64,000 nt of DNA from an uncultured delta proteobacterium (GTDB lineage Bacteria > Desulfobacterota > Binatia > UBA9968), in NCBI GenBank assembly GCA_963771465.1, contig CAVYTU010000015.1, positions 672,001 through 736,000 of the forward strand, in the 5' to 3' direction. The notes beneath the pieces are model-generated. The model was not told the DNA's origin. It did not search any database and saw only the letters and a list, made by a program, of their open reading frames with translations. Made by a program: the position numbers and the translations under genes. Positions 2,861-13,682 of this stretch are shown here, in pieces; the stretch's first letter is position 1, and each line of letters starts with the position of its first letter.

Positions 2861-4669
2861 ATGACTTGGGATCTCACCAGTTACTTCTCTGAATTCCACG
2901 GTCCAGAGATGCTTCGCTTCAAGGAAGCCATCGGCACCGATGTGGCTGCATTGCAAAGCGCCGCGGCGAGTCTGCCGCAACTCACTGTGGAATCGGCGAG
3001 CGCTTGGGAAGATATATTGCTGCGCAATGAGGATCTCTCGCGCCGCATGTCCCATTTCGGATCCTATATCGGCTGTCTGGCATCCTCCGACGCGCGCAAC
3101 GAAGCGTACATGAAAGAAGAAGGCGAGCTGACCCGCATCCGCGCCGAGCTTGCCAAGGTGCGAATCGAGTTGCTGCGCGGGTTGAAACACAGCAGCGACG
3201 CTGAATTCGCCGCCTTGTGCGGCAAACCCACCCTCGCCGGCGCTGAAAATTATCTAAACCGACTGCGCGAAGAAGCCCGCCGCGCCATGTCGGTGGAAAA
3301 AGAAATACTCGCCACCGATCTCGGCGTCGACGGCATTCAGTCTTGGGGACGACTTTACGACACCGCATCCGCCAAGCTGGAATTCGATATGCTCTATCCT
3401 GACGGCCGGCGCGAGCGTGTGCCCATGTCGCAACGCCGTTCGTTGATGGATCATCCCGACCGGCGCGTGCGCCAAGCTGCTTTTGAAGGCGGCAATGCGG
3501 CGTGGCAGACGGTCGAAGACACCGCCGCCGCTGCGCTCAACGCCATCGCCGGGACCAGGCTGACGCTCAATCGCCACCGCGGCGTCGATCATTTTCTCGA
3601 CATCGCCCTGTTTCAAGCCGCCATCGGTCGCAAGACACTCGACGCTATGTTCGAAGCCTTGTTCGCCAATCTAGAAATTCCACGGAAAATTTTGCGCTTG
3701 AAAGCGCAGGTGATGGGGCGCGAGCGTGTCGCGTGGTTCGATCTCGGCGCGCCGCTCGACTTGCCGCACCAAGAAAAGCTGTCCTGGGTCAAAGCCTGCT
3801 CGATGATCGGCGCGTCGTTTAACCAAGCCTATCCCGCCCTGGGAAACTATTTCGCGCAGCAAGTCATCGCCAAGAACTGGGTCGATTGGGAGCCTCGAAG
3901 AGGCAAGCGGCCGGGCGGATTTTGCACCAGCTCGATGCTCAGCAAGGAATCGCGCATCTTCATGACCTACAACGAAGCGCTCGGCGACGTGCTCACCCTC
4001 GCCCATGAATCAGGCCATGCCTATCACGGCTATCTCATGGGCGATGTGCGTCCCTATGCGCGCGGTTATCCGATGACGCTGGCGGAAACCGCTTCGACCT
4101 TCGGCGAAAATGTCCTGATCAACGGCATTCTCGACGATGTCAAAGTCAGCGAGGAGCAAAAAGCGTTGATCCTCGACATCGAACTCGGCCATGGCGCGGT
4201 TTATCTCTTGGACATTCCCGTCCGCTACGAGTTTGAGAAGGTATTCTATGAAGAGCGTGCCAAAGGATCTCTCAGCGTTTCGCGGCTCAAAGAATTAATG
4301 TCCCAGACACAGCGCCAAGTGCTCGGCGATGTCCTCGAGCCTGGCGGCGAAGATCCTTACTTTTGGGCATCGAAGCTGCACTTCTATATCACCGGCATCA
4401 CTTTCTACAATTTTCCTTACACCTTCGGCTACCTGCTGAGCCGCGGCTTGTACGCCATGTTTAGAAAAGAAGGCAACCCTTTCTTACCGAAGTACGAAGA
4501 ATTCCTCCGCCGCGCCGGCAGCGACACGGCTGAGAACGTCGTCAAGCAAACCGTCGGTAGAGATATCGAGAAAACTGAATTCTGGAGCGAAGCGATTCGA
4601 AGCTTGGAAGAACCGCTCAAACAATTGCAGGCCATGCTGCCAAAAGTAATGACTCGAAACTCTGCTTAA
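2861..4669 (+). CDS. pepF: Oligoendopeptidase F (M3B family)
   Basis: Zinc motif HESGH, plus LAETASTFGE, KRPGGFC and FYNFPYTFG. Confidence 0.9.
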   Translation: MTWDLTSYFSEFHGPEMLRFKEAIGTDVAALQSAAASLPQLTVESASAWEDILLRNEDLSRRMSHFGSYIGCLASSDARNEAYMKEEGELTRIRAELAKVRIELLRGLKHSSDAEFAALCGKPTLAGAENYLNRLREEARRAMSVEKEILATDLGVDGIQSWGRLYDTASAKLEFDMLYPDGRRERVPMSQRRSLMDHPDRRVRQAAFEGGNAAWQTVEDTAAAALNAIAGTRLTLNRHRGVDHFLDIALFQAAIGRKTLDAMFEALFANLEIPRKILRLKAQVMGRERVAWFDLGAPLDLPHQEKLSWVKACSMIGASFNQAYPALGNYFAQQVIAKNWVDWEPRRGKRPGGFCTSSMLSKESRIFMTYNEALGDVLTLAHESGHAYHGYLMGDVRPYARGYPMTLAETASTFGENVLINGILDDVKVSEEQKALILDIELGHGAVYLLDIPVRYEFEKVFYEERAKGSLSVSRLKELMSQTQRQVLGDVLEPGGEDPYFWASKLHFYITGITFYNFPYTFGYLLSRGLYAMFRKEGNPFLPKYEEFLRRAGSDTAENVVKQTVGRDIEKTEFWSEAIRSLEEPLKQLQAMLPKVMTRNSA

Positions 4670-5917
4670 CTCATCCCTTCCAGCAGCGCCGTCCTCAACA
4701 AATCGATGGCGTTGAGCGTCATGCGCGAGCGATCATAAGCGCCGCGGCCGGCGCTGGTGCTTTCGCGGCGCAGAAACTTCGCGCCATCGGTGAGCGAAAC
4801 ATAAGTCTGGCCGCGGGCGAGATTCTGAATCTTACTGTTGGGGTCGGCGACGGCATGCAACGCCAGGCCGAAATCGCAGTGCGACAGTTCGCGGGCGGCA
4901 TTGGCCATCGCGTCGGTGAGCGCGATCGGGTCTTTCAGTGCTTCGTCAATCTTCCCGCCGTTCTGCGATCTTTTCAGTAGAACCCGCAGCGACCGCTTCG
5001 TTGTTACAGATAAAGCCTGCGCCAAAATTTTCGTTGCTCGCCGTCTGCATCCGCTCCGCTAACTGGCCGCAAGTCAGATCTTCGCACACCGCCACGGTCT
5101 GGTTTTTCTGCCGCAGCAATTTGCCCGTGACATGTTCCATCGTGTCTTCGTCGGCGGCAAAGATCGCGTTGCCTAACAAGCCGCGCACTTCCTCCTCCAC
5201 GGGCGCGATCATCTGCATCGCCGCAGCGCGATTGGCTGCCTTGGCGGCGATGCGCACGTCGACTTGGCCCGGCAATGCCAGCACGCCGACCGTTGGATTG
5301 CTGGAATTGGCGATCAGATGACCGACTTTGTCATCGACAGCGCTCTCGCCGATGCCGACGATTTTAAGCACGCGGTAATGAATCACTTCGGCGAGATTGA
5401 ACTTCTTTCTGAGATAAGGTTCGACTTCGTTCTCGAACAGCCACTTCATTTCCACCGGCACGCCAGGGAGCGAGAAGATAACCGCGCGCGGATCTTCGAC
5501 GATAAACGACGGCGCCGTGCCGTTGGGATTTTTCACCGGGATCGCTCCTTCGGGCATGTAGGATTGGCGAATATTGTTGGGAGTCATCGGCCGGCCGCGC
5601 CGGCGAAAATGTTCTTCCACCTGCTCCAGCATGCCGGCGTCTTGAATGAGTTTGCGCCCCACTACTTCGGCGACAATTTCACGGGTCAAATCGTCCTGAG
5701 TCGGACCGATGCCGCCGCTGGTGATGACGATATCGGCGCGTTCCAGGGCGCGTGCAATGACTTCTTTCATCCGCGCCGGATTGTCGCCGACGACCGATTT
5801 GAAATACAAATTCACGCCCAGCGCGGTCAATCGCTGCGCCATCCACGCCGAGTTGGTATCGACGATTTGACCGAGCAATAACTCTGAACCGATCGCGACG
5901 ATTTCCGCGTTTGCCAT
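4666..5917 (-). CDS. cinA: CinA family protein (MoCF-biosynthesis-like + PncC-like domains), one frameshift near 4994
   Basis: N-terminus AEIVAIGSELLLGQIVDTNS, GGIGPTQDD and LPGVP. ORFs 4946..5917 and 4666..5025 join if one extra G in GAAGCGGTCG is removed. Confidence 0.85.
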
Positions 5918-6092: not shown

Positions 6093-8156
6093 GTGATGAT
6101 GAATTCACCGCGCGATAACCCTCGATTGAACTTTAATTTGGAGGCCGAGTCGAGCGGTTCCAGAGCGCGCGCCGCGACATTTCAAACTTTGCACGGCGAA
6201 ATCAAGACGCCGATCTTCATGCCGGTCGGTACCCAGGCGACGGTCAAAGCGCAAACGGTGGAAACTTTGAAAATGACCGGCGCGCAACTGTTACTGGCCA
6301 ACACCTATCATCTGCTGCTTCGTCCCGGAGCTGAAGTTTTCAAGAAATTCGGCGGCATTCACCATTTCATGAATTGGCACTGGCCAGTGCTGACCGATTC
6401 AGGCGGATTTCAGATTTTTTCTCTGCGCCACTCGAGATCGATGGACGAAGCGGGCGCGCGATTTAAAAGCTATGTGGATGGCAAGTCGTATTTACTTTCA
6501 CCTGAATCGAGCCTCGAAATGCAGCGAACCATCGGCAGCGATATCATGATGGTGCTCGATCAGTGCATCCCTGCCACAGCCTCTTACGCCCAAGCGCAGG
6601 CGGCCATGGAGCTTACGCACCGTTGGGCTCGACGCGCGCTACACGCCCGCGGCGATTCTCCAGCGGCGCTTTTTGGCATCGTCCAAGGCGGCGCCCATCA
6701 GGAGCTGCGAAAAGTGAGCGCCGAATGCTTAGGTGAGCTGCCCTTCGATGGCTTGGCCATCGGCGGCCTCGCCGTCGGCGAAACTCGCACCGAGCGTTAC
6801 GACCTGACTGAATGGGTAACCGCGCTTTTGCCGGCCCACCGGCCGCGATATCTCATGGGCGTGGGCACGCCCATCGATATTCTCGAAGCGGTGCATCGCG
6901 GCGTCGATATGTTCGACTGCATTATCCCGACTCAACTGGCGCAACGCGGCGTTGCGTTCACCTCTCAAGGCAAATTACAGTTGCGCCGCACCGTGTATAA
7001 GCTCGCCGACAAGCCCGTCGACGCCGGCTGCGATTGTCCCTGTTGCCGGCAATATTCCCGCGCCTACATTCATCATCTGATCAAATCAGGCGAGGTATTG
7101 GGGTGGCATCTTTTAGGCATGCACAATCTGTCGTTCTACCATCGTCTAATGCGGCAAATGCGCGAGCGGATCTTAACCGGCACCTTCGCCGTTTACTATA
7201 AGCAAAAACGACTCGATCTAGCGCGCATTGACGAAGACAATCCAACTCGCGCACCAAAAAAAGCCAAGGCCGTCAATTCCGTACGGTTGGGCGATTATGA
7301 ACTGCACCAGTCGGCGCAGGGGAGGTTTTACAGTATTCGTCAGATCAGCTCCGGGGAAATCATGCACTCGGTGACCGCGCCAAGTGAAGAGGCCAACAAA
7401 CTATATGTCGAACAGTCAGCGCTGGCGGCGCGGCTCGTCAAAACTGACGACCACGCCGATGAGCTGGTGCTCTGGGACGTCGGCCTCGGCGCCGCCGCCA
7501 ATGCCATGGCGGCGATTCGCTGCTTCGAGAAATGCTACGATCAGGTTAGCGGCAAGGATTTGCGGTCGATGCGCTTGCTCAGCTTCGAACGCAATCTCGA
7601 TCCGCTCGTGCTCGCGGCCAAGCATCCTGACTGTTTGCCGCACATGCGCCACGGCGCGCCGGCGAAAATTCTCACCCACGGCAGCTGGCAGCACGCTTCG
7701 GGGCAGCTCCAGTGGAAGCTTCTTAAAGGAGATTTTCGCGATTACATTGAATCTGCGAAGCACCCCGGGCTGATTTTCTACGATCCCTTCTCATACAAAA
7801 CCGACGCTGAACTTTGGACCGGCGAAATCTTTGCGCGGATTTTCGCCCGCTGCTCGGAAAAACCGGCGGAGCTTTACACTTACTCGGCTTCAACCGCAGT
7901 GCGCGTGGCGCTACTGAGCGCCGGTTTTTTCGTCGCCCAAGGCGTCGCCATCGGATCGAAGACCGAAACCACCATCGCTTTCACCCGCGCCGATGGCGCC
8001 ACTCAGCATCCGATGAAGCCGCCACCGCTCGACCAGAAGTGGCTCGCGCGCTGGCGCCGCAGCGAAGCAAAGTTTCCCGCAACCCTTGCAGCAGACGAGC
8101 AAGCGCGCTTTGCCACACTGATTGAAAGCCACCGGCAATTTTCCAACGCTGGCTAA
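6093..8156 (+). CDS. tgt: tRNA-guanine transglycosylase fused to a C-terminal MnmC-like SAM-dependent methyltransferase
   Basis: Tgt motifs FMPVGT, NTYHL, DSGGFQ, YLMGVG, DMFDC and CDCPCC...H. C-terminal GEIMHS, DVGLGAAAN, YDPFS...ELWT and TYSAS. Confidence 0.9.
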   Translation: MMMNSPRDNPRLNFNLEAESSGSRARAATFQTLHGEIKTPIFMPVGTQATVKAQTVETLKMTGAQLLLANTYHLLLRPGAEVFKKFGGIHHFMNWHWPVLTDSGGFQIFSLRHSRSMDEAGARFKSYVDGKSYLLSPESSLEMQRTIGSDIMMVLDQCIPATASYAQAQAAMELTHRWARRALHARGDSPAALFGIVQGGAHQELRKVSAECLGELPFDGLAIGGLAVGETRTERYDLTEWVTALLPAHRPRYLMGVGTPIDILEAVHRGVDMFDCIIPTQLAQRGVAFTSQGKLQLRRTVYKLADKPVDAGCDCPCCRQYSRAYIHHLIKSGEVLGWHLLGMHNLSFYHRLMRQMRERILTGTFAVYYKQKRLDLARIDEDNPTRAPKKAKAVNSVRLGDYELHQSAQGRFYSIRQISSGEIMHSVTAPSEEANKLYVEQSALAARLVKTDDHADELVLWDVGLGAAANAMAAIRCFEKCYDQVSGKDLRSMRLLSFERNLDPLVLAAKHPDCLPHMRHGAPAKILTHGSWQHASGQLQWKLLKGDFRDYIESAKHPGLIFYDPFSYKTDAELWTGEIFARIFARCSEKPAELYTYSASTAVRVALLSAGFFVAQGVAIGSKTETTIAFTRADGATQHPMKPPPLDQKWLARWRRSEAKFPATLAADEQARFATLIESHRQFSNAG

Positions 8157-8233
8157 GCACGACTGAATCTAAATGAACGGACTGTTCGCGTGTCACCCTT
8201 GTCCGCTCACAGCTTCTTTGCGACAATGTCCGC

Positions 8234-9500: not shown

Positions 9501-9677
9501 CGATCGAGGTGTGACCCTGGAGGAGCGAAGGCACCCCGGGCAAATGCGTCATCGTCCTGTTGGCGCTTGGCAGGAGGTTGGACCTTTTCACAGCTAATCG
9601 CATAAGCAACTCGCTAGGTTTGCATCTCAAAGGCACAGGCCCATTGCCTTCGCTCCGGAAGGGTTGCAGCTCGATCG
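9501..9677 (+). ncRNA. Candidate structured RNA (long closing stem, multibranch interior), family unidentified
   Basis: The ends pair over about 33 bp (CGATCGAG/CTCGATCG, TGTGACCCT/AGGGTTGCA with 2 G-U, GGAGCGAAGGCA/TGCCTTCGCTCC, GGGC/GCCC), with internal hairpins. Confidence 0.45.
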
Positions 9678-9727
9678 CTGTTTCAGCACCGATAACCCAG
9701 GCTAGCAGTCGAAATCACGGAGGACCT

Positions 9728-10786
9728 ATGCGCGCAAAATTGACACTAATCGGTATTACAGCCTTCATCGCGATGGCGATTAATTCACCGCTCTTCGCCC
9801 AATCAACACCGTACTTCCAAGGCAAGACCATCCTGCTGATTCAGGGCCGCGAACCTGGCGGCACCGGCGCTCTACGCGTCCAAGCGGCGCTGCCGTATCT
9901 AAAAAAATATTTGCCTGGCGAGCCGATCATCGTCACCCAGTTCATGCCCGGCGGCGGCGGCCGCAAGGCGACAAACTACGTCGCGCGCAACGCCAAGCCT
10001 GACGGCTTGACCCTTGGCAACGTCGGCTCCGGTCTAGTCGCCAACGCGGTGCTCGGCTCCACAGGCGTCGAATACGATATCGACAAGCTCATCTATCTCG
10101 GCACGTCCAATAGCTCGGCACAGTATGTTTTTGGGTCGGTAGCGAAACTGGGCTTGGACAATTTAGAGAAATTGCGCGCCCGCCCCGGCATTCGCGTCGG
10201 CGCGCAGACAGTCGGACACGACATTTACATCAACGGCCGGCTGTTTTCCTGGATACTGGGTTTGAAAGATCCGAAATTCGTCACCGGTTATTCTGGACCC
10301 GAGCTCGATGTGGCGATGGACCGCGGCGAGTTAGACGCTCGCGCCAATATTCCCGACACCGTATTGCAACGCAATACAGACTTCGTCGATAAAAAACTGC
10401 ACAATTTCCACGCGATCATCCAGATTCCCAAAGACGATCGTCATCCCCATCCCGCATTCAACAAGTTGCCAGAGCTTGAGACTTTCGCCAAGAGTGATCG
10501 CGAGCGAAAAATTCTGACCATGTTCCGCACCTTCCGGCTGGTCGGCTCGCCTTACATTCTGCCGCCCGGCACGCCGGCGGAAGCGGTGAATCACTGGCGC
10601 GAGGCGATGCGCAAAACTTTTAGAGACCCAGCGTTTATCAAAGATTTCAAAAAGCTCTCGGCCGACGACGCCACGCCGCTGACCCCGGAGGCACAGGATA
10701 AAGCGATCAAAGATATTCCGCGCGACGCTGAAGTCATCGCGCTTTTCAACAAAATCGCCGGCGGCGATCCGCTGCCACCGCGGTAA
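9728..10786 (+). CDS. TctC/Bug-like tripartite tricarboxylate transporter substrate-binding protein
   Basis: RBS GGAGG before ATG 9728, a signal peptide, and motifs YFQGKTI, PGG, MPGGGG, KPDGLT and LPPGTP. Confidence 0.85.
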   Translation: MRAKLTLIGITAFIAMAINSPLFAQSTPYFQGKTILLIQGREPGGTGALRVQAALPYLKKYLPGEPIIVTQFMPGGGGRKATNYVARNAKPDGLTLGNVGSGLVANAVLGSTGVEYDIDKLIYLGTSNSSAQYVFGSVAKLGLDNLEKLRARPGIRVGAQTVGHDIYINGRLFSWILGLKDPKFVTGYSGPELDVAMDRGELDARANIPDTVLQRNTDFVDKKLHNFHAIIQIPKDDRHPHPAFNKLPELETFAKSDRERKILTMFRTFRLVGSPYILPPGTPAEAVNHWREAMRKTFRDPAFIKDFKKLSADDATPLTPEAQDKAIKDIPRDAEVIALFNKIAGGDPLPPR

Positions 10787-11006: not shown

Positions 11007-11690
11007 TTACGAACTAAACACGATGCCGCGGTCGGCGACGATGGTGAACGGATACTGCGCCGGCTCCAGAGCGGTGCCGCGCATTTTTTCTACGGTCAGT
11101 CGGCGCACGAAACGGCCGTTGACCGGCTCCATGCTCAGGGCGATTGTTCCAGCGACCAAATATTCTTCAACCCCACGCAGCTGCTTGTCCGACGAATAAG
11201 TGGTAAGCAAATGAGTCGTGTTGGTGTTGGCTTGCAAGGCGTAAATCAATTGACGCGCCTGGTCCGGGTTGCGCGATCCCACTAACGGCCCCACCGGGTC
11301 GATCACGACCCGCGCCGCGCCCATGCGCGTGATATAGGTGTTGAGATCCGTCGCTACCCGTTGCACGTCGACACTTTTACTGGTGTCGCCCGCCCGGGCG
11401 ACAAAATAGGCTGAGGCATCGAGAATCAAGAATTCTTTGGACTCGATAAACGGCGCCAAGTCCCAACCGAGCGAAGCGGCTTGTTCGATCACATCGGCGG
11501 GCTTCTCGTCGATGGCGACGTACAATCCCTTTTCTTTATCCATCAGACCGCGGACGAGATACTGCAAGCTCAGAACTGACTTGCCGGTACCCGGATCGCC
11601 GACGACGAGATAGCTTTTGCCTTGCCTTAGCCCGCCTTCGATCAACGCGTCGAGTTCCGGGACTCCGGTTGGTATGCGTTTCCCACTCAT
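11007..11690 (-). CDS. Single-domain KaiC/RAD55-like ATPase
   Basis: RIPTGVPELD, Walker A GDPGTGKS, Walker B VVIDP and RRLTVEKMRG. Confidence 0.88.
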   Translation of the reverse strand: MSGKRIPTGVPELDALIEGGLRQGKSYLVVGDPGTGKSVLSLQYLVRGLMDKEKGLYVAIDEKPADVIEQAASLGWDLAPFIESKEFLILDASAYFVARAGDTSKSVDVQRVATDLNTYITRMGAARVVIDPVGPLVGSRNPDQARQLIYALQANTNTTHLLTTYSSDKQLRGVEEYLVAGTIALSMEPVNGRFVRRLTVEKMRGTALEPAQYPFTIVADRGIVFSS

Positions 11691-11762: not shown

Positions 11763-13682
11763 TTATCGTCCGACGCCGACTCGTTTGCGTAGTTCGGCGC
11801 GCGCTCGTTCGATATCAGCGGAGAGACGTTGCTGCAGTTGTTTGCTCTCATCTTTCGGCCCGCTGGCGGGCGTCTGCTGGCCAGGCGCGACAGCGCTAGA
11901 CTCGCCTACCGATGACATCGGTGTCAATACCGGTATCGCTTCCGCTGGCGGCTTCATACCGCCCAGTCCAGCGTTAACGCCAATGGGGCTTGGCGGCCGG
12001 CTCGCCACGGCCGCTGTCGCCGCGCTTTTTTGTGCGTTCAACTGAGTAAGATGCTGCACCTGATTCTTGAGTTCGGCGATCTCCGCGCCGCGGGCATCGA
12101 GCATGGCCAATTTATGACTCAACTGATTCTGCACTTCAGAGATTTGCCCGCGCAGTTCGGCGCCCAAGCCTTCGATCATCGAGTCCCGTTCTTGCCTTTG
12201 GCTTACCTGGTCTTGCAGCACGCTAAGCTCGCCCATCATGTGCTCGCGTAGCTGCCCGGCCTGCGCCGCCTCATTGACCATTAGCGCGTGACTTTGCTGG
12301 GCATCGGCCTCGGCCTGAACCAGGCGTTGGACGACCATCTGCATTTCGCCGCGCAATCCGTCCAACAGCGCGTCGCGACCATGGCGATCCTGTCGCTCAC
12401 TAGCGAGATATTCGCGCAGCTCCTCGATTTTTCCACCGAGCGACGTCTCGATTTCTTGGACCCACTGCGTCGCTGGCTGTTGTTGGGTCAATTCCATCTG
12501 CGCTACGCGGTTTAGCAACGTGTTGAGTTCGAGTTGTACCTGGCCGAGGCCGCCGTCAGTTTTTTCCATTTGGGCCAGCTTTAGGCTGAGGCGATTTTCG
12601 CCGTCACGGAGATGAGCCGAGATGAGCGCTTCAATCTTTTCGACCCACGCTGACTGATCCCATTGCCGCGCCACTGCGTCTTCGGCGCGGCTCGAAAGCG
12701 CTGCCAGGTTCGCGCTGAGCGCGGTGAGTCGCTGGGTGAGCGCGCCGACCTCGCCGTCGCGCCGCTCGACCGCGCCGAGCGCCCCGTGCAGTTGCTCTTG
12801 CAGCGCCGCGATTTGTTCACAGAGCGCGGCTTCAACTCGTTTAACCGCCGATTCATCCGCCTGTGGCGGAGTTGCTGGCGAGTCGAGCCGGGTCTTGAGC
12901 CCACTGATTTCCGCTTTTAGATCCGCCGCGGCTTGTAGCGTGGTTTGCTCTAGCCGCGCATAGCGGCCGGCCAACTCCGTCAGCTCCTTGCCGGAGTTTG
13001 CGCTCCGTCTAATCTCACCGCGCAATTCGTCGATCTTGCTTTGTAGTTTTTCCTCGTCCACGTAGGAGAAATTTTCCGCCGGCCGTGAATTCGCCAGCTC
13101 ATCGAGAAGCTCTGCTTTGAGCTTGGCCAATTCATTTTGCATCGACCGTTGGACAAGTTCTTCCACGGGTTGACGCTCGATCGCGGCCTGCGCCTGGTGA
13201 GTCGAGAACTCCGCGCGCGCAACCCGGTCCGCCAGCAAATTGAGGTCCAGTTTGAGATCGCCAAGCGCGCCGCTGGCAGCGTTTTGCGACTGCTTTTGAA
13301 TCTGCTCTTCGAATTCACCGAGCTTGACGCTGATCGCGGCGGCGAGCTGTTCGACGTTGACTTGGTCCACGCTAAACCGTTGTTGCCGCTCTCGGACTCG
13401 CTCGATTTCAGCCTTCAGAGCATCGACTTCCGCAGGATTCACCGCCGCGCCGCTGTTGCTGGTTTGCGTCAACTGGAGCTCGCGCATTTGACCGAGCAGG
13501 TTATCTTCAAGCCGTTTGATCTGCTCTTTGCGCTGGGACTCGCTCGCCGCCAGCGCCTGCGCCAGGCCGAGATCCGCCGCGGCTCGGCCAACCAGCCAGC
13601 CATATAAAACATCCGTTCCGCCACCCGAGTTGCTTCCCTGACTGCCCAAAGGCTGGTCGTTCGATTCGTCAAACAGTCCCAC
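11763..13682 (-). CDS. Long coiled-coil protein of unknown function (639 aa)
   Basis: AAGGAG RBS before GTG. Q/E/L/A-rich heptad character throughout, a Pro-rich linker and a basic C-terminal helix. No obvious TM segment or signal peptide. Confidence 0.8.
   Translation of the reverse strand: MGLFDESNDQPLGSQGSNSGGGTDVLYGWLVGRAAADLGLAQALAASESQRKEQIKRLEDNLLGQMRELQLTQTSNSGAAVNPAEVDALKAEIERVRERQQRFSVDQVNVEQLAAAISVKLGEFEEQIQKQSQNAASGALGDLKLDLNLLADRVARAEFSTHQAQAAIERQPVEELVQRSMQNELAKLKAELLDELANSRPAENFSYVDEEKLQSKIDELRGEIRRSANSGKELTELAGRYARLEQTTLQAAADLKAEISGLKTRLDSPATPPQADESAVKRVEAALCEQIAALQEQLHGALGAVERRDGEVGALTQRLTALSANLAALSSRAEDAVARQWDQSAWVEKIEALISAHLRDGENRLSLKLAQMEKTDGGLGQVQLELNTLLNRVAQMELTQQQPATQWVQEIETSLGGKIEELREYLASERQDRHGRDALLDGLRGEMQMVVQRLVQAEADAQQSHALMVNEAAQAGQLREHMMGELSVLQDQVSQRQERDSMIEGLGAELRGQISEVQNQLSHKLAMLDARGAEIAELKNQVQHLTQLNAQKSAATAAVASRPPSPIGVNAGLGGMKPPAEAIPVLTPMSSVGESSAVAPGQQTPASGPKDESKQLQQRLSADIERARAELRKRVGVGR

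Follow-up and report, generated by a model that had tools for sequence, protein, structure and literature searches.

A second, fused tRNA-guanine transglycosylase carrying an MnmC2-like methyltransferase domain: a conserved gene and possibly a lead to a new RNA nucleoside

Hypermodification of the wobble position in bacteria falls mainly to two systems, queuosine and the 5-aminomethyluridine derivatives (xnm5U), whose enzymes were regarded as well mapped. The locus described here raises the question of what is done by a protein that joins an enzyme of the first system to a domain resembling an enzyme of the second. The locus lies in a stretch of 64,000 nucleotides (the window) from an uncultured soil-dwelling delta proteobacterium of the Binatia (contig CAVYTU010000015.1), in which one gene at 6093..8156 on the forward strand encodes a tRNA-guanine transglycosylase (Tgt) followed by a methyltransferase domain similar to MnmC2. 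We conclude from the analysis below that this fusion is a real, conserved and uncharacterised gene that appears to be bifunctional, and that it is possibly a lead to a new RNA nucleoside.

A Tgt–methyltransferase gene in one reading frame

The open reading frame (ORF) is a single uninterrupted frame in the ORF list, coding for 687 amino acids (aa) plus a stop. It starts with GTG, with two ATG codons directly after, and ends with TAA. Pfam finds a complete TGT domain (PF01702) at residues 24-372 with an E value of 2e-143, and a Methyltransf_30 domain (PF05430) at residues 531-629 with an E value of 3.8e-15. The NCBIfam equivalog model for Tgt, TIGR00430, scores the protein at 448.4 bits, which is above its cut-off of 306.75, while the MnmC2 domain model NF033855 matches residues 421-630 at 65.4 bits (68.1 in a second scoring), which is below its cut-off of 136. 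The original prediction, made from the DNA letters and the ORF list, described a single 687-residue ORF with a full Tgt and methyltransferase motifs of the MnmC type, and Pfam, NCBIfam and the alignments agree with this. The divergent motifs that it singled out are also exact, with VLDQC at residues 154-158 and PTQLAQRG at residues 279-286. The features of the gene are as follows.

6093..8156 (+): whole fusion gene, 687 aa, both Pfam domains in one frame
6093..7211 (+): Tgt domain, residues 1-373, triosephosphate isomerase (TIM) barrel plus Zn subdomain (Pfam, TIGR00430, match to Zymomonas mobilis Tgt)
6396..6398 (+): Asp102, presumed catalytic acid/base, same number in Z. mobilis; aligned, and invariant in 29 diverse fusions
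6558..6566 (+): D156-Q157-C158; substrate-binding Asp and bacterial-type Cys158 kept, Glu157 replaced by Gln
6915..6917 (+): Asp275, aligned to the nucleophile D280 of Z. mobilis (D264 in Escherichia coli); invariant
6927..6950 (+): loop PTQLAQRG in place of PTRNARNG (R286Q, N287L, R289Q, N290R in Z. mobilis numbering)
7029..7124 (+): zinc site C313, C315, C318 ... H344, aligned to C318/C320/C323/H349 of Z. mobilis; all invariant
7212..7298 (+): flexible Lys/Pro-rich linker, residues 374-402, low model confidence
7299..7985 (+): predicted MnmC2-like class I S-adenosylmethionine (SAM)-dependent N-methyltransferase domain, residues 403-631 (NF033855, match to 3vyw, structure model and fold search)
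7476..7490 (+): SAM-binding loop D462-V-G-L-G466, aligned to Aquifex DVGFG and to the G66-G70 loop of E. coli MnmC
7782..7793 (+): D564-P-F-S567, counterpart by alignment of the MnmC catalytic/SAM motif D178-G-F-A(-P182); Pro182 not kept
7986..8153 (+): conserved basic C-terminal extension, residues 632-687, containing WLARWRRSEAKFP; consensus WLxRWRRSxAKFP

In the AlphaFold2 model of the full-length protein, the predicted local distance difference test score (pLDDT) is mostly above 85 for the Tgt domain. The linker has pLDDT below 50 at residues 388-393, and its means over 10-residue blocks are 63-64.

Such a gene might be an artefact or be in decay, by mis-assembly, by read-through of two genes or as a pseudogene. 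Nothing was found in support of this; the genome (G000 here) is an assembly of 6.9 Mb in 19 contigs, 99.4% complete and with 6.3% estimated contamination. A scan of one genome per species for relatives of the C-terminal 310 residues gave 45 loci from other public assemblies, and in 42 of these independent loci the Tgt domain and the C-terminal domain are in the same ORF (in one of the 42, L036, a contig end cuts the ORF and only the end of the Tgt domain is visible). The three others are a genuine stand-alone copy (L052), a copy cut by a contig end (L054) and a weak partial match (L056). Both Pfam domains are present in all of the 120 best database matches listed. Near-identical sequence occurs in soil and rhizosphere metagenomes of many studies, and the domain junction (about nt 7210-7300) is crossed without gaps by contigs of three studies, namely one from an RNA-library run (6893-7374) and two from DNA runs of other studies (6918-7436 and 7182-8216). 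No indels inside the fusion ORF are reported in these bridging contigs. The original prediction had allowed for a stop or an indel between the domains; there is none. The RNA-library contig fits with transcription without proving it, as such libraries can contain DNA. The catalytic residues of both domains are invariant. The fusion is confirmed as a real gene rather than an assembly artefact; artefact or decay is extremely improbable, and is refuted as far as sequence data can show.

The length of the frame varies among the related loci. At several loci of the Opitutae type (L025:3691-6939 (+), L028, L032 and L038), the frame that holds the fusion, counted from stop to stop, begins 70-400 codons ahead of the Tgt domain, the longest frame being 1083 aa in L025. 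The Riflebacteria fusion at L048:4876-7152 (+) has a frame of 759 aa, with the best methyltransferase segment ending at query residue 213; an insertion of about 70 residues in its methyltransferase domain is suggested.

The two halves and their relatives

The original prediction had raised the matter of a canonical stand-alone tgt. One is present in the same genome, directly beside queA. It codes for 369 aa, is located on another contig (C2), and has the usual LDEC and PTRNARNG motifs. The fused Tgt is therefore an extra paralogue. The loci belong to a set of 44 genomes, each of them with a relative of the fusion's C-terminal domain. At least two Tgt matches are found in 43 of them, of which 38 have a complete second frame and five have fragments only, as read from the table; the second Tgt is missing only in G093. 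QueA is present in 43 of the 44. In at least 18 genomes no more than 1 kb separates it from the canonical Tgt, and in none does it lie next to the fusion. Identity to the Tgt domain of the window is 56-84% for fused Tgts across phyla and 42-51% for canonical ones, including that of its own genome.

A quick maximum-likelihood tree was made of 69 Tgt rows, 42 of them fused; the duplicates L003 and L063-L067 were excluded, as was the partial L036. The label "fused" was given at more than 55% identity, and coincides exactly with the rows whose ORF holds the C-terminal domain. The fused Tgts form one clade, separate from the queA-linked canonical copy, with a support of 100 in the Shimodaira–Hasegawa-like approximate likelihood ratio test (SH-aLRT). 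Its stem is 1.18 changes per column long, and the branches inside it are short. Horizontal spread of the fusion is suggested by the intermixing of phyla within this clade, where Binatia/delta-proteobacterial, Opitutae/Verrucomicrobiota, Riflebacteria, Oligoflexia, Leptospira and Myxococcota labels occur together. Among 61 sampled genomes of the window's phylum, the fusion is found in the window genome only. All the carrier records are metagenome-assembled genomes (MAGs) or uncultured-bacterium bins.

In two close relatives the canonical queA-tgt pair has internal stops or split matches (G074:C11:415385-417561 and G072:C19:138701-139730), and these could be pseudogenes or assembly indel errors. 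Tgts of canonical type also stand at the C-terminal end of long frames of 760, 1065 and 625 aa at L068:2007-4286 (-), L069:3-3197 (+) and L060:1471-3345 (-), respectively. The long Tgt-holding frames in G040, G023 and G001 were considered as other fusions and rejected, since Pfam finds only TGT in them; the long frames upstream of canonical-type Tgts are probably just open upstream sequence.

The Tgt of Z. mobilis matches the fusion protein with an E value of 7e-114. In the alignment, D102, D156 and GGLAVGE at 224-230 keep the same numbers, Q203, M260 and D280 correspond to Q198, M255 and D275, and the zinc ligands C318/C320/C323/H349 correspond to C313/C315/C318/H344. Conservation was judged from 29 aligned fusions with identities of 45-89%. 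D102, D156, C158, Q198, the GGLA.GE segment, M255, D275 and all four zinc ligands are invariant, as are the aligned base-binding Gly230/Leu231 (Z. mobilis numbering). In Tgt, Asp102 serves as the catalytic acid/base. The nucleophile of E. coli Tgt is given as D264 in the available text of PMC13416341. Given that the catalytic, base-binding and zinc residues are invariant and that the score is above the equivalog cut-off, the fused Tgt domain looks active.

The motifs that set this clade apart were compared between the 42 fused rows and 27 canonical Tgt rows. Most of the fused rows have LDQC, where most of the canonical rows have LDEC. The loop following the nucleophile is P(T/S/A)QLAQRG in nearly all fused rows, so that both arginines of the PTRxxRNG loop are gone and one Arg is gained one position later; both arginines are kept in all 12 of the commonest canonical variants listed. 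The fused clade also differs from canonical Tgts beside the zinc cysteines and before His349. The residues of the preQ1 (7-aminomethyl-7-deazaguanine) pocket, C158, A232 and V233, are unchanged. Arg286 and Arg289 of Z. mobilis presumably lie at the RNA-binding face of the complex. The available parts of PMC6165067 and PMC13416341 make no mention of these two residues. The fused protein has basic residues R298/R299, K303 and K331 near the positions, by numbering offset only, of E. coli K285, K292 and R320, which bind the tRNA stem according to the text available of PMC13416341. Our reading of these motifs is that the fused Tgt probably still exchanges guanine for a 7-deazaguanine of the size of preQ1 in an RNA hairpin, and that the PTQLAQRG loop beside the nucleophile may give it an altered RNA preference.

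Among solved structures, the C-terminal domain is most similar in sequence to Aquifex MnmC2 (3vyw, E value 1.8e-9), and the identity to solved MnmC2/MnmC structures is 18-22%. The AlphaFold2 model of the domain has a pLDDT of 93.6 and a predicted template modelling score (pTM) of 0.90. The top matches to this model in Foldseek are 3vyw (E value 5e-15), 2qy6 and 3ps9, which are Aquifex MnmC2 and the N-terminal domains of E. coli and Yersinia MnmC. The next are m4,2C synthase and then spermidine synthases, all of them amine-directed alkyltransferases. The residues reported as critical in MnmC, in the available text of PMC3648344, are the G66-G70 loop, Glu101, Asp178, Phe180 and Lys236. Their aligned counterparts in the METHYLTRANSFERASE half of the fusion are DVGLG, SFER, DPF and GSKTE, while Pro182, which is 98% conserved in MnmC, is not kept. 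Among the fusions these counterparts vary little or not at all; D462, G464, G466 and D564 are invariant, and conservation reaches at least 90% at P565, F566 and S567. The C-terminal extension, modelled as helices by AlphaFold2, has W650, R656 and S657 at least 90% conserved and Q682 invariant.

On sequence grounds, the methyltransferase half is a distinct MnmC2-like subfamily rather than an MnmC2 equivalog, and it appears not to be an MnmC2 orthologue. Its scores of 65-68 bits are well short of the cut-off of 136, two genomes have genuine MnmC-type genes in addition to it, and it forms a clade of its own. The Leptospira MAG G002 contains, besides the fusion, a true MnmC2 (229 bits) with MnmC1 (213 bits) directly after it. 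The Leptospirales MAG G099 contains the fusion and an MnmC-like protein of 622 aa, whose domains score 216 and 258 bits, both over the domain cut-offs, and whose full-length score of 513 is just below the 540 of the bifunctional model. In a quick tree (excluding L003, L036, L048, L054 and L063-L067), 41 fused methyltransferase domains and the stand-alone L052 form one clade with support 99. Five stand-alone Oligoflexia paralogues (68-75 bits) branch beside this clade, and genuine MnmC is far away. The tree has several long branches, which makes placements beyond the fused clade uncertain. Stand-alone members of the subfamily, about 270-340 aa in length, are also numerous in a search of 1.8 billion representatives. 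In each of the two domain trees a long stem leads to the fused clade, with slow change after it, and the groupings in the two are similar. This would be expected if the domains were fused once and have been inherited together since.

Some of the stand-alone copies deserve description. The 285-aa copy at L052:5986-6843 (+) looks like a secondary split of the fusion, because it is nested inside the fused methyltransferase clade; its genome has a Tgt frame of 409 aa and a Tgt fragment at a contig end. The Oligoflexia MAG G097, which also bears a fusion, has a stand-alone paralogue at L088:3441-4391 (+) that is 7 bp from a convergent QueF-like gene of 280 aa (L088:4398-5240 (-)), a single case. 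This adjacency was rejected as evidence, since it was seen only once, the genes are convergent, and the genes next to five other stand-alone paralogues are unrelated.

What the fusion may do

The reading that we favour, although tentatively and at somewhat short of an even chance, is that the fusion is a bifunctional enzyme that inserts preQ1 and then N-methylates its aminomethyl group on the same nucleotide. In the first step, a neofunctionalised second Tgt would exchange guanine, most likely G34 of the anticodon loop, for preQ1. The basis for this step is that the full base-exchange machinery and a preQ1-type pocket of the bacterial kind are kept. In the second step, the tethered MnmC2-like domain, whose family methylates wobble bases at the nitrogen of an exocyclic aminomethyl group, would use SAM to methylate the 7-aminomethyl group of preQ1. 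This would give 7-(methylaminomethyl)-7-deazaguanosine. Ordinary queuosine would still be made by the canonical queA-tgt pair of the same genome. Observed directly are the architecture, the paralogy, the preserved catalytic motifs and the standing of each domain as a separate subfamily. Which base is inserted, which group accepts the methyl, which RNA is the target and in what order the steps run are inferred. The original prediction had suggested preQ1 as a possible methyl acceptor, and this is sound chemistry, because the aminomethyl group occupies the same major-groove position as in 5-aminomethyluridine (nm5U) and there is a precedent in phage DNA. The odds of coupled chemistry on one nucleotide are raised by the combination of an extra paralogue, a distinct methyltransferase subfamily, and matching long stems and groupings in the two trees. 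On a wider scale, it may be, although this is rather less likely than not, that bacteria of soil and fresh water in at least six phyla use the fusion of the second Tgt and the methyltransferase to make N-methyl-preQ1, an unreported RNA nucleoside, in parallel to queuosine. It would most likely be at tRNA position 34, and possibly on a subset of tRNAs or in a non-canonical context set by PTQLAQRG.

Several observations weigh against coupled insertion and methylation. There is no evident reason for a cell to divert preQ1-tRNA from QueA. The full-length AlphaFold model has no fixed arrangement of the two domains (pTM 0.58), and all-against-all clustering found no neighbour gene that is conserved across phyla. 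G000 has MnmE and MnmG as well as QueC, QueF and QueA; the fusion is its only PF05430 domain, and a search for MnmM in this genome found none, so the fused domain could be its MnmC2. Across the 44 genomes, 34 have a single PF05430 match, which by table count is the fusion frame in 32 (in G102 and G104 it is a stand-alone or contig-cut copy only); further PF05430 matches besides the fusion occur in other genomes beyond G002 and G099. MnmG is over its cut-off in 41 of the 44 genomes, against 33 for QueF. In five of them both QueC and QueF matches are missing, so that preQ1 made de novo is not always available, a limit that applies equally to canonical Tgt. The phyletic patterns of QueF, QueC and MnmG were rejected as a discriminator, being too widespread or limiting canonical Tgt equally.

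In the main alternative, somewhat less probable than the favoured reading, the polypeptide carries two independent wobble activities. Here Tgt would insert preQ1 into GUN tRNAs, and the methyltransferase would be the organism's MnmC2 acting on other tRNAs, converting the nm5(s2)U34 made by the ammonium route of MnmEG to the 5-methylaminomethyl derivative mnm5(s2)U34, so that fusion serves only to co-locate or co-regulate them. This would fit the gene content of G000 and the near-constant presence of MnmG, and MnmC2 is both the best-scoring named family and the best fold match. In the available text of bioRxiv 10.1101/2023.12.21.572861 such proteins are filed as MnmC2 fusions, and the stand-alone MnmC2 of Aquifex works in this way without MnmC1 (available parts of PMC3648344 and bioRxiv 10.1101/2023.12.21.572861). 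Against it, the Tgt half would be redundant with a near-universal canonical Tgt, and yet it is strongly conserved; G002 and G099 hold genuine MnmC-type genes beside the fusion; and the methyltransferase scores at about half the equivalog cut-off in a separate clade. Going without MnmC2 is also normal in the window's phylum, given that 56 of its 61 sampled genomes have no PF05430, and according to the available text of bioRxiv 10.1101/2023.12.21.572861 more than half of the bacteria that encode MnmAGE lack MnmC. The known MnmC2 fusions described there, with MnmC1 and with YtqA, join consecutive steps on one nucleotide, and there is no obvious kinetic logic in tethering enzymes that act on different tRNAs. 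The coupled wobble-base enzyme of the original prediction thus stands in part: the domains, the motifs and the extra Tgt paralogue speak for it, and the plain mnm5(s2)U reading stands beside it, in view of MnmE/MnmG and the lack of another MnmC2 or of MnmM.

It is also possible, though rather improbable, that the target or the acceptor is a different one. The Tgt with its changed loop might read another RNA or position, such as a different loop containing G, rRNA or some other RNA, or even DNA as DpdA does; or the methyl group might go to the secondary amine of epoxyqueuosine or queuosine, or to free preQ1 before insertion. This would be in keeping with the clade-wide replacement of both arginines of PTRxxRNG, the changes beside the zinc ligands and at Glu157, the long stem branch, the loss of Pro182 from the MnmC motif, and the mixed-phylum tree that suggests horizontal spread; and Tgt relatives that act on DNA exist, as reported in the available text of PMC10516641. 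The protein nevertheless passes the tRNA Tgt equivalog cut-off, has the strong match to Z. mobilis Tgt with the zinc subdomain intact, and has basic residues near the E. coli stem-binding positions (by numbering offset only, as above). The unchanged C158, A232 and V233 pocket argues against a bulkier, already methylated base. A role in DNA modification is unlikely, because PADLOC gives no defence-system match for the fusion, there is none in the phage collection, the plasmid collection yields just one weak match, to an Aeromonas record as large as a chromosome, and the neighbours are housekeeping genes, namely CinA, SurE, an S4-domain protein and an M3 peptidase.

Surroundings, meaning and known systems

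Synteny of the fusion with CinA, the M3 peptidase and SurE is found only in 5-7 closely related loci, and the neighbourhood was rejected as a clue to function. Two other ORFs of the window, of 408 aa at 9560-10786 (+), with a start resembling a signal peptide, and of 119 aa at 4666-5025 (-), have no Pfam match at 1e-5 and are conserved beside the fusion in 7 closely related loci. Further away, a P-loop protein of 227 aa with a GTGKS motif (11007-11690 (-)) adjoins an ORF of 639 aa (11763-13682 (-)) whose product is rich in Gln, Glu and Ala and probably a coiled coil. This pair is conserved in 3 related loci.

Where the fusion is named at all in the databases searched, it is called "Tgt" or "queuine tRNA-ribosyltransferase". 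COG4121 domains in 968 genomes were analysed in a study of mnm5s2U synthesis (bioRxiv 10.1101/2023.12.21.572861, 2023), which in its available text lists the TGT-MnmC2 architecture and proposes no function for it. The architecture is thus already in print, while the paralogy with canonical Tgt, the subfamily status of the two halves, the clade signature and the breadth of the distribution are new. Nothing more was found on the TGT-MnmC2 fusion or on methylated preQ1 in tRNA, in a search that was narrow for methylated preQ1.

A conserved and widespread second Tgt carrying an amine methyltransferase points to an uncharacterised branch of 7-deazaguanine chemistry in RNA. If the product were N-methyl-preQ1, it would be a new natural RNA nucleoside, made by convergent evolution with the phage DpdA/DpdM system for DNA, and a Tgt with altered RNA preference could serve for labelling in the style of RNA-TAG. 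If the fusion is only an MnmC2 tethered to Tgt, then its annotation would be corrected and the completion of mnm5s2U in these lineages would be explained.

Compared with bacterial Tgt (EC 2.4.2.29; Z. mobilis, E. coli), the fusion has the same TIM barrel and zinc subdomain, the same catalytic and base-binding residues and a preQ1-type pocket, and scores above the curated equivalog cut-off. It differs in being a second paralogue in a separate clade with a long stem, in its 310-aa C-terminal methyltransferase part, and in having PTQLAQRG for PTRNARNG, LDQC for LDEC, and changes beside the zinc ligands.

MnmC2/MnmD (Aquifex 3vyw; the N-terminal domain of E. coli MnmC) shares with the second half its fold, the SAM loop and the SFE, GD, D-x-F and G-x-K-x-E motifs. 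By analogy it would also share the expected chemistry, which is N-methylation of the aminomethyl group of a wobble base. Unlike these enzymes, the fused domain has low identity and score, a separate clade, no Pro182, and an additional basic C-terminal tail, and its partner is Tgt rather than MnmC1. In MnmC1-MnmC2 (MnmC) and YtqA-MnmC2, a methyltransferase of the MnmC2 type is likewise fused to the enzyme that makes its substrate, acting on the same nucleotide. In the present case the partner comes from the queuosine and not the xnm5U pathway, so that the substrate would have to be a 7-deazapurine and not a uridine.

There is a chemical precedent in phages. N-methyl-preQ1 occurs naturally in phage DNA (as mdPreQ1), where, according to the available text of PMC10516641, it is made by the Tgt-family transglycosylase DpdA and the methyltransferase DpdM. 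Their combination resembles that proposed here, and differs in that it acts on DNA, and that DpdM is an unfused metal-binding DUF3109 protein (CxxxCxxCC) of unrelated fold. Pfam finds only TGT and Methyltransf_30 in the fusion protein and no DUF3109 domain. The window protein, in contrast to the phage system, is close to the Tgt that acts on tRNA, and has no phage or PADLOC match.

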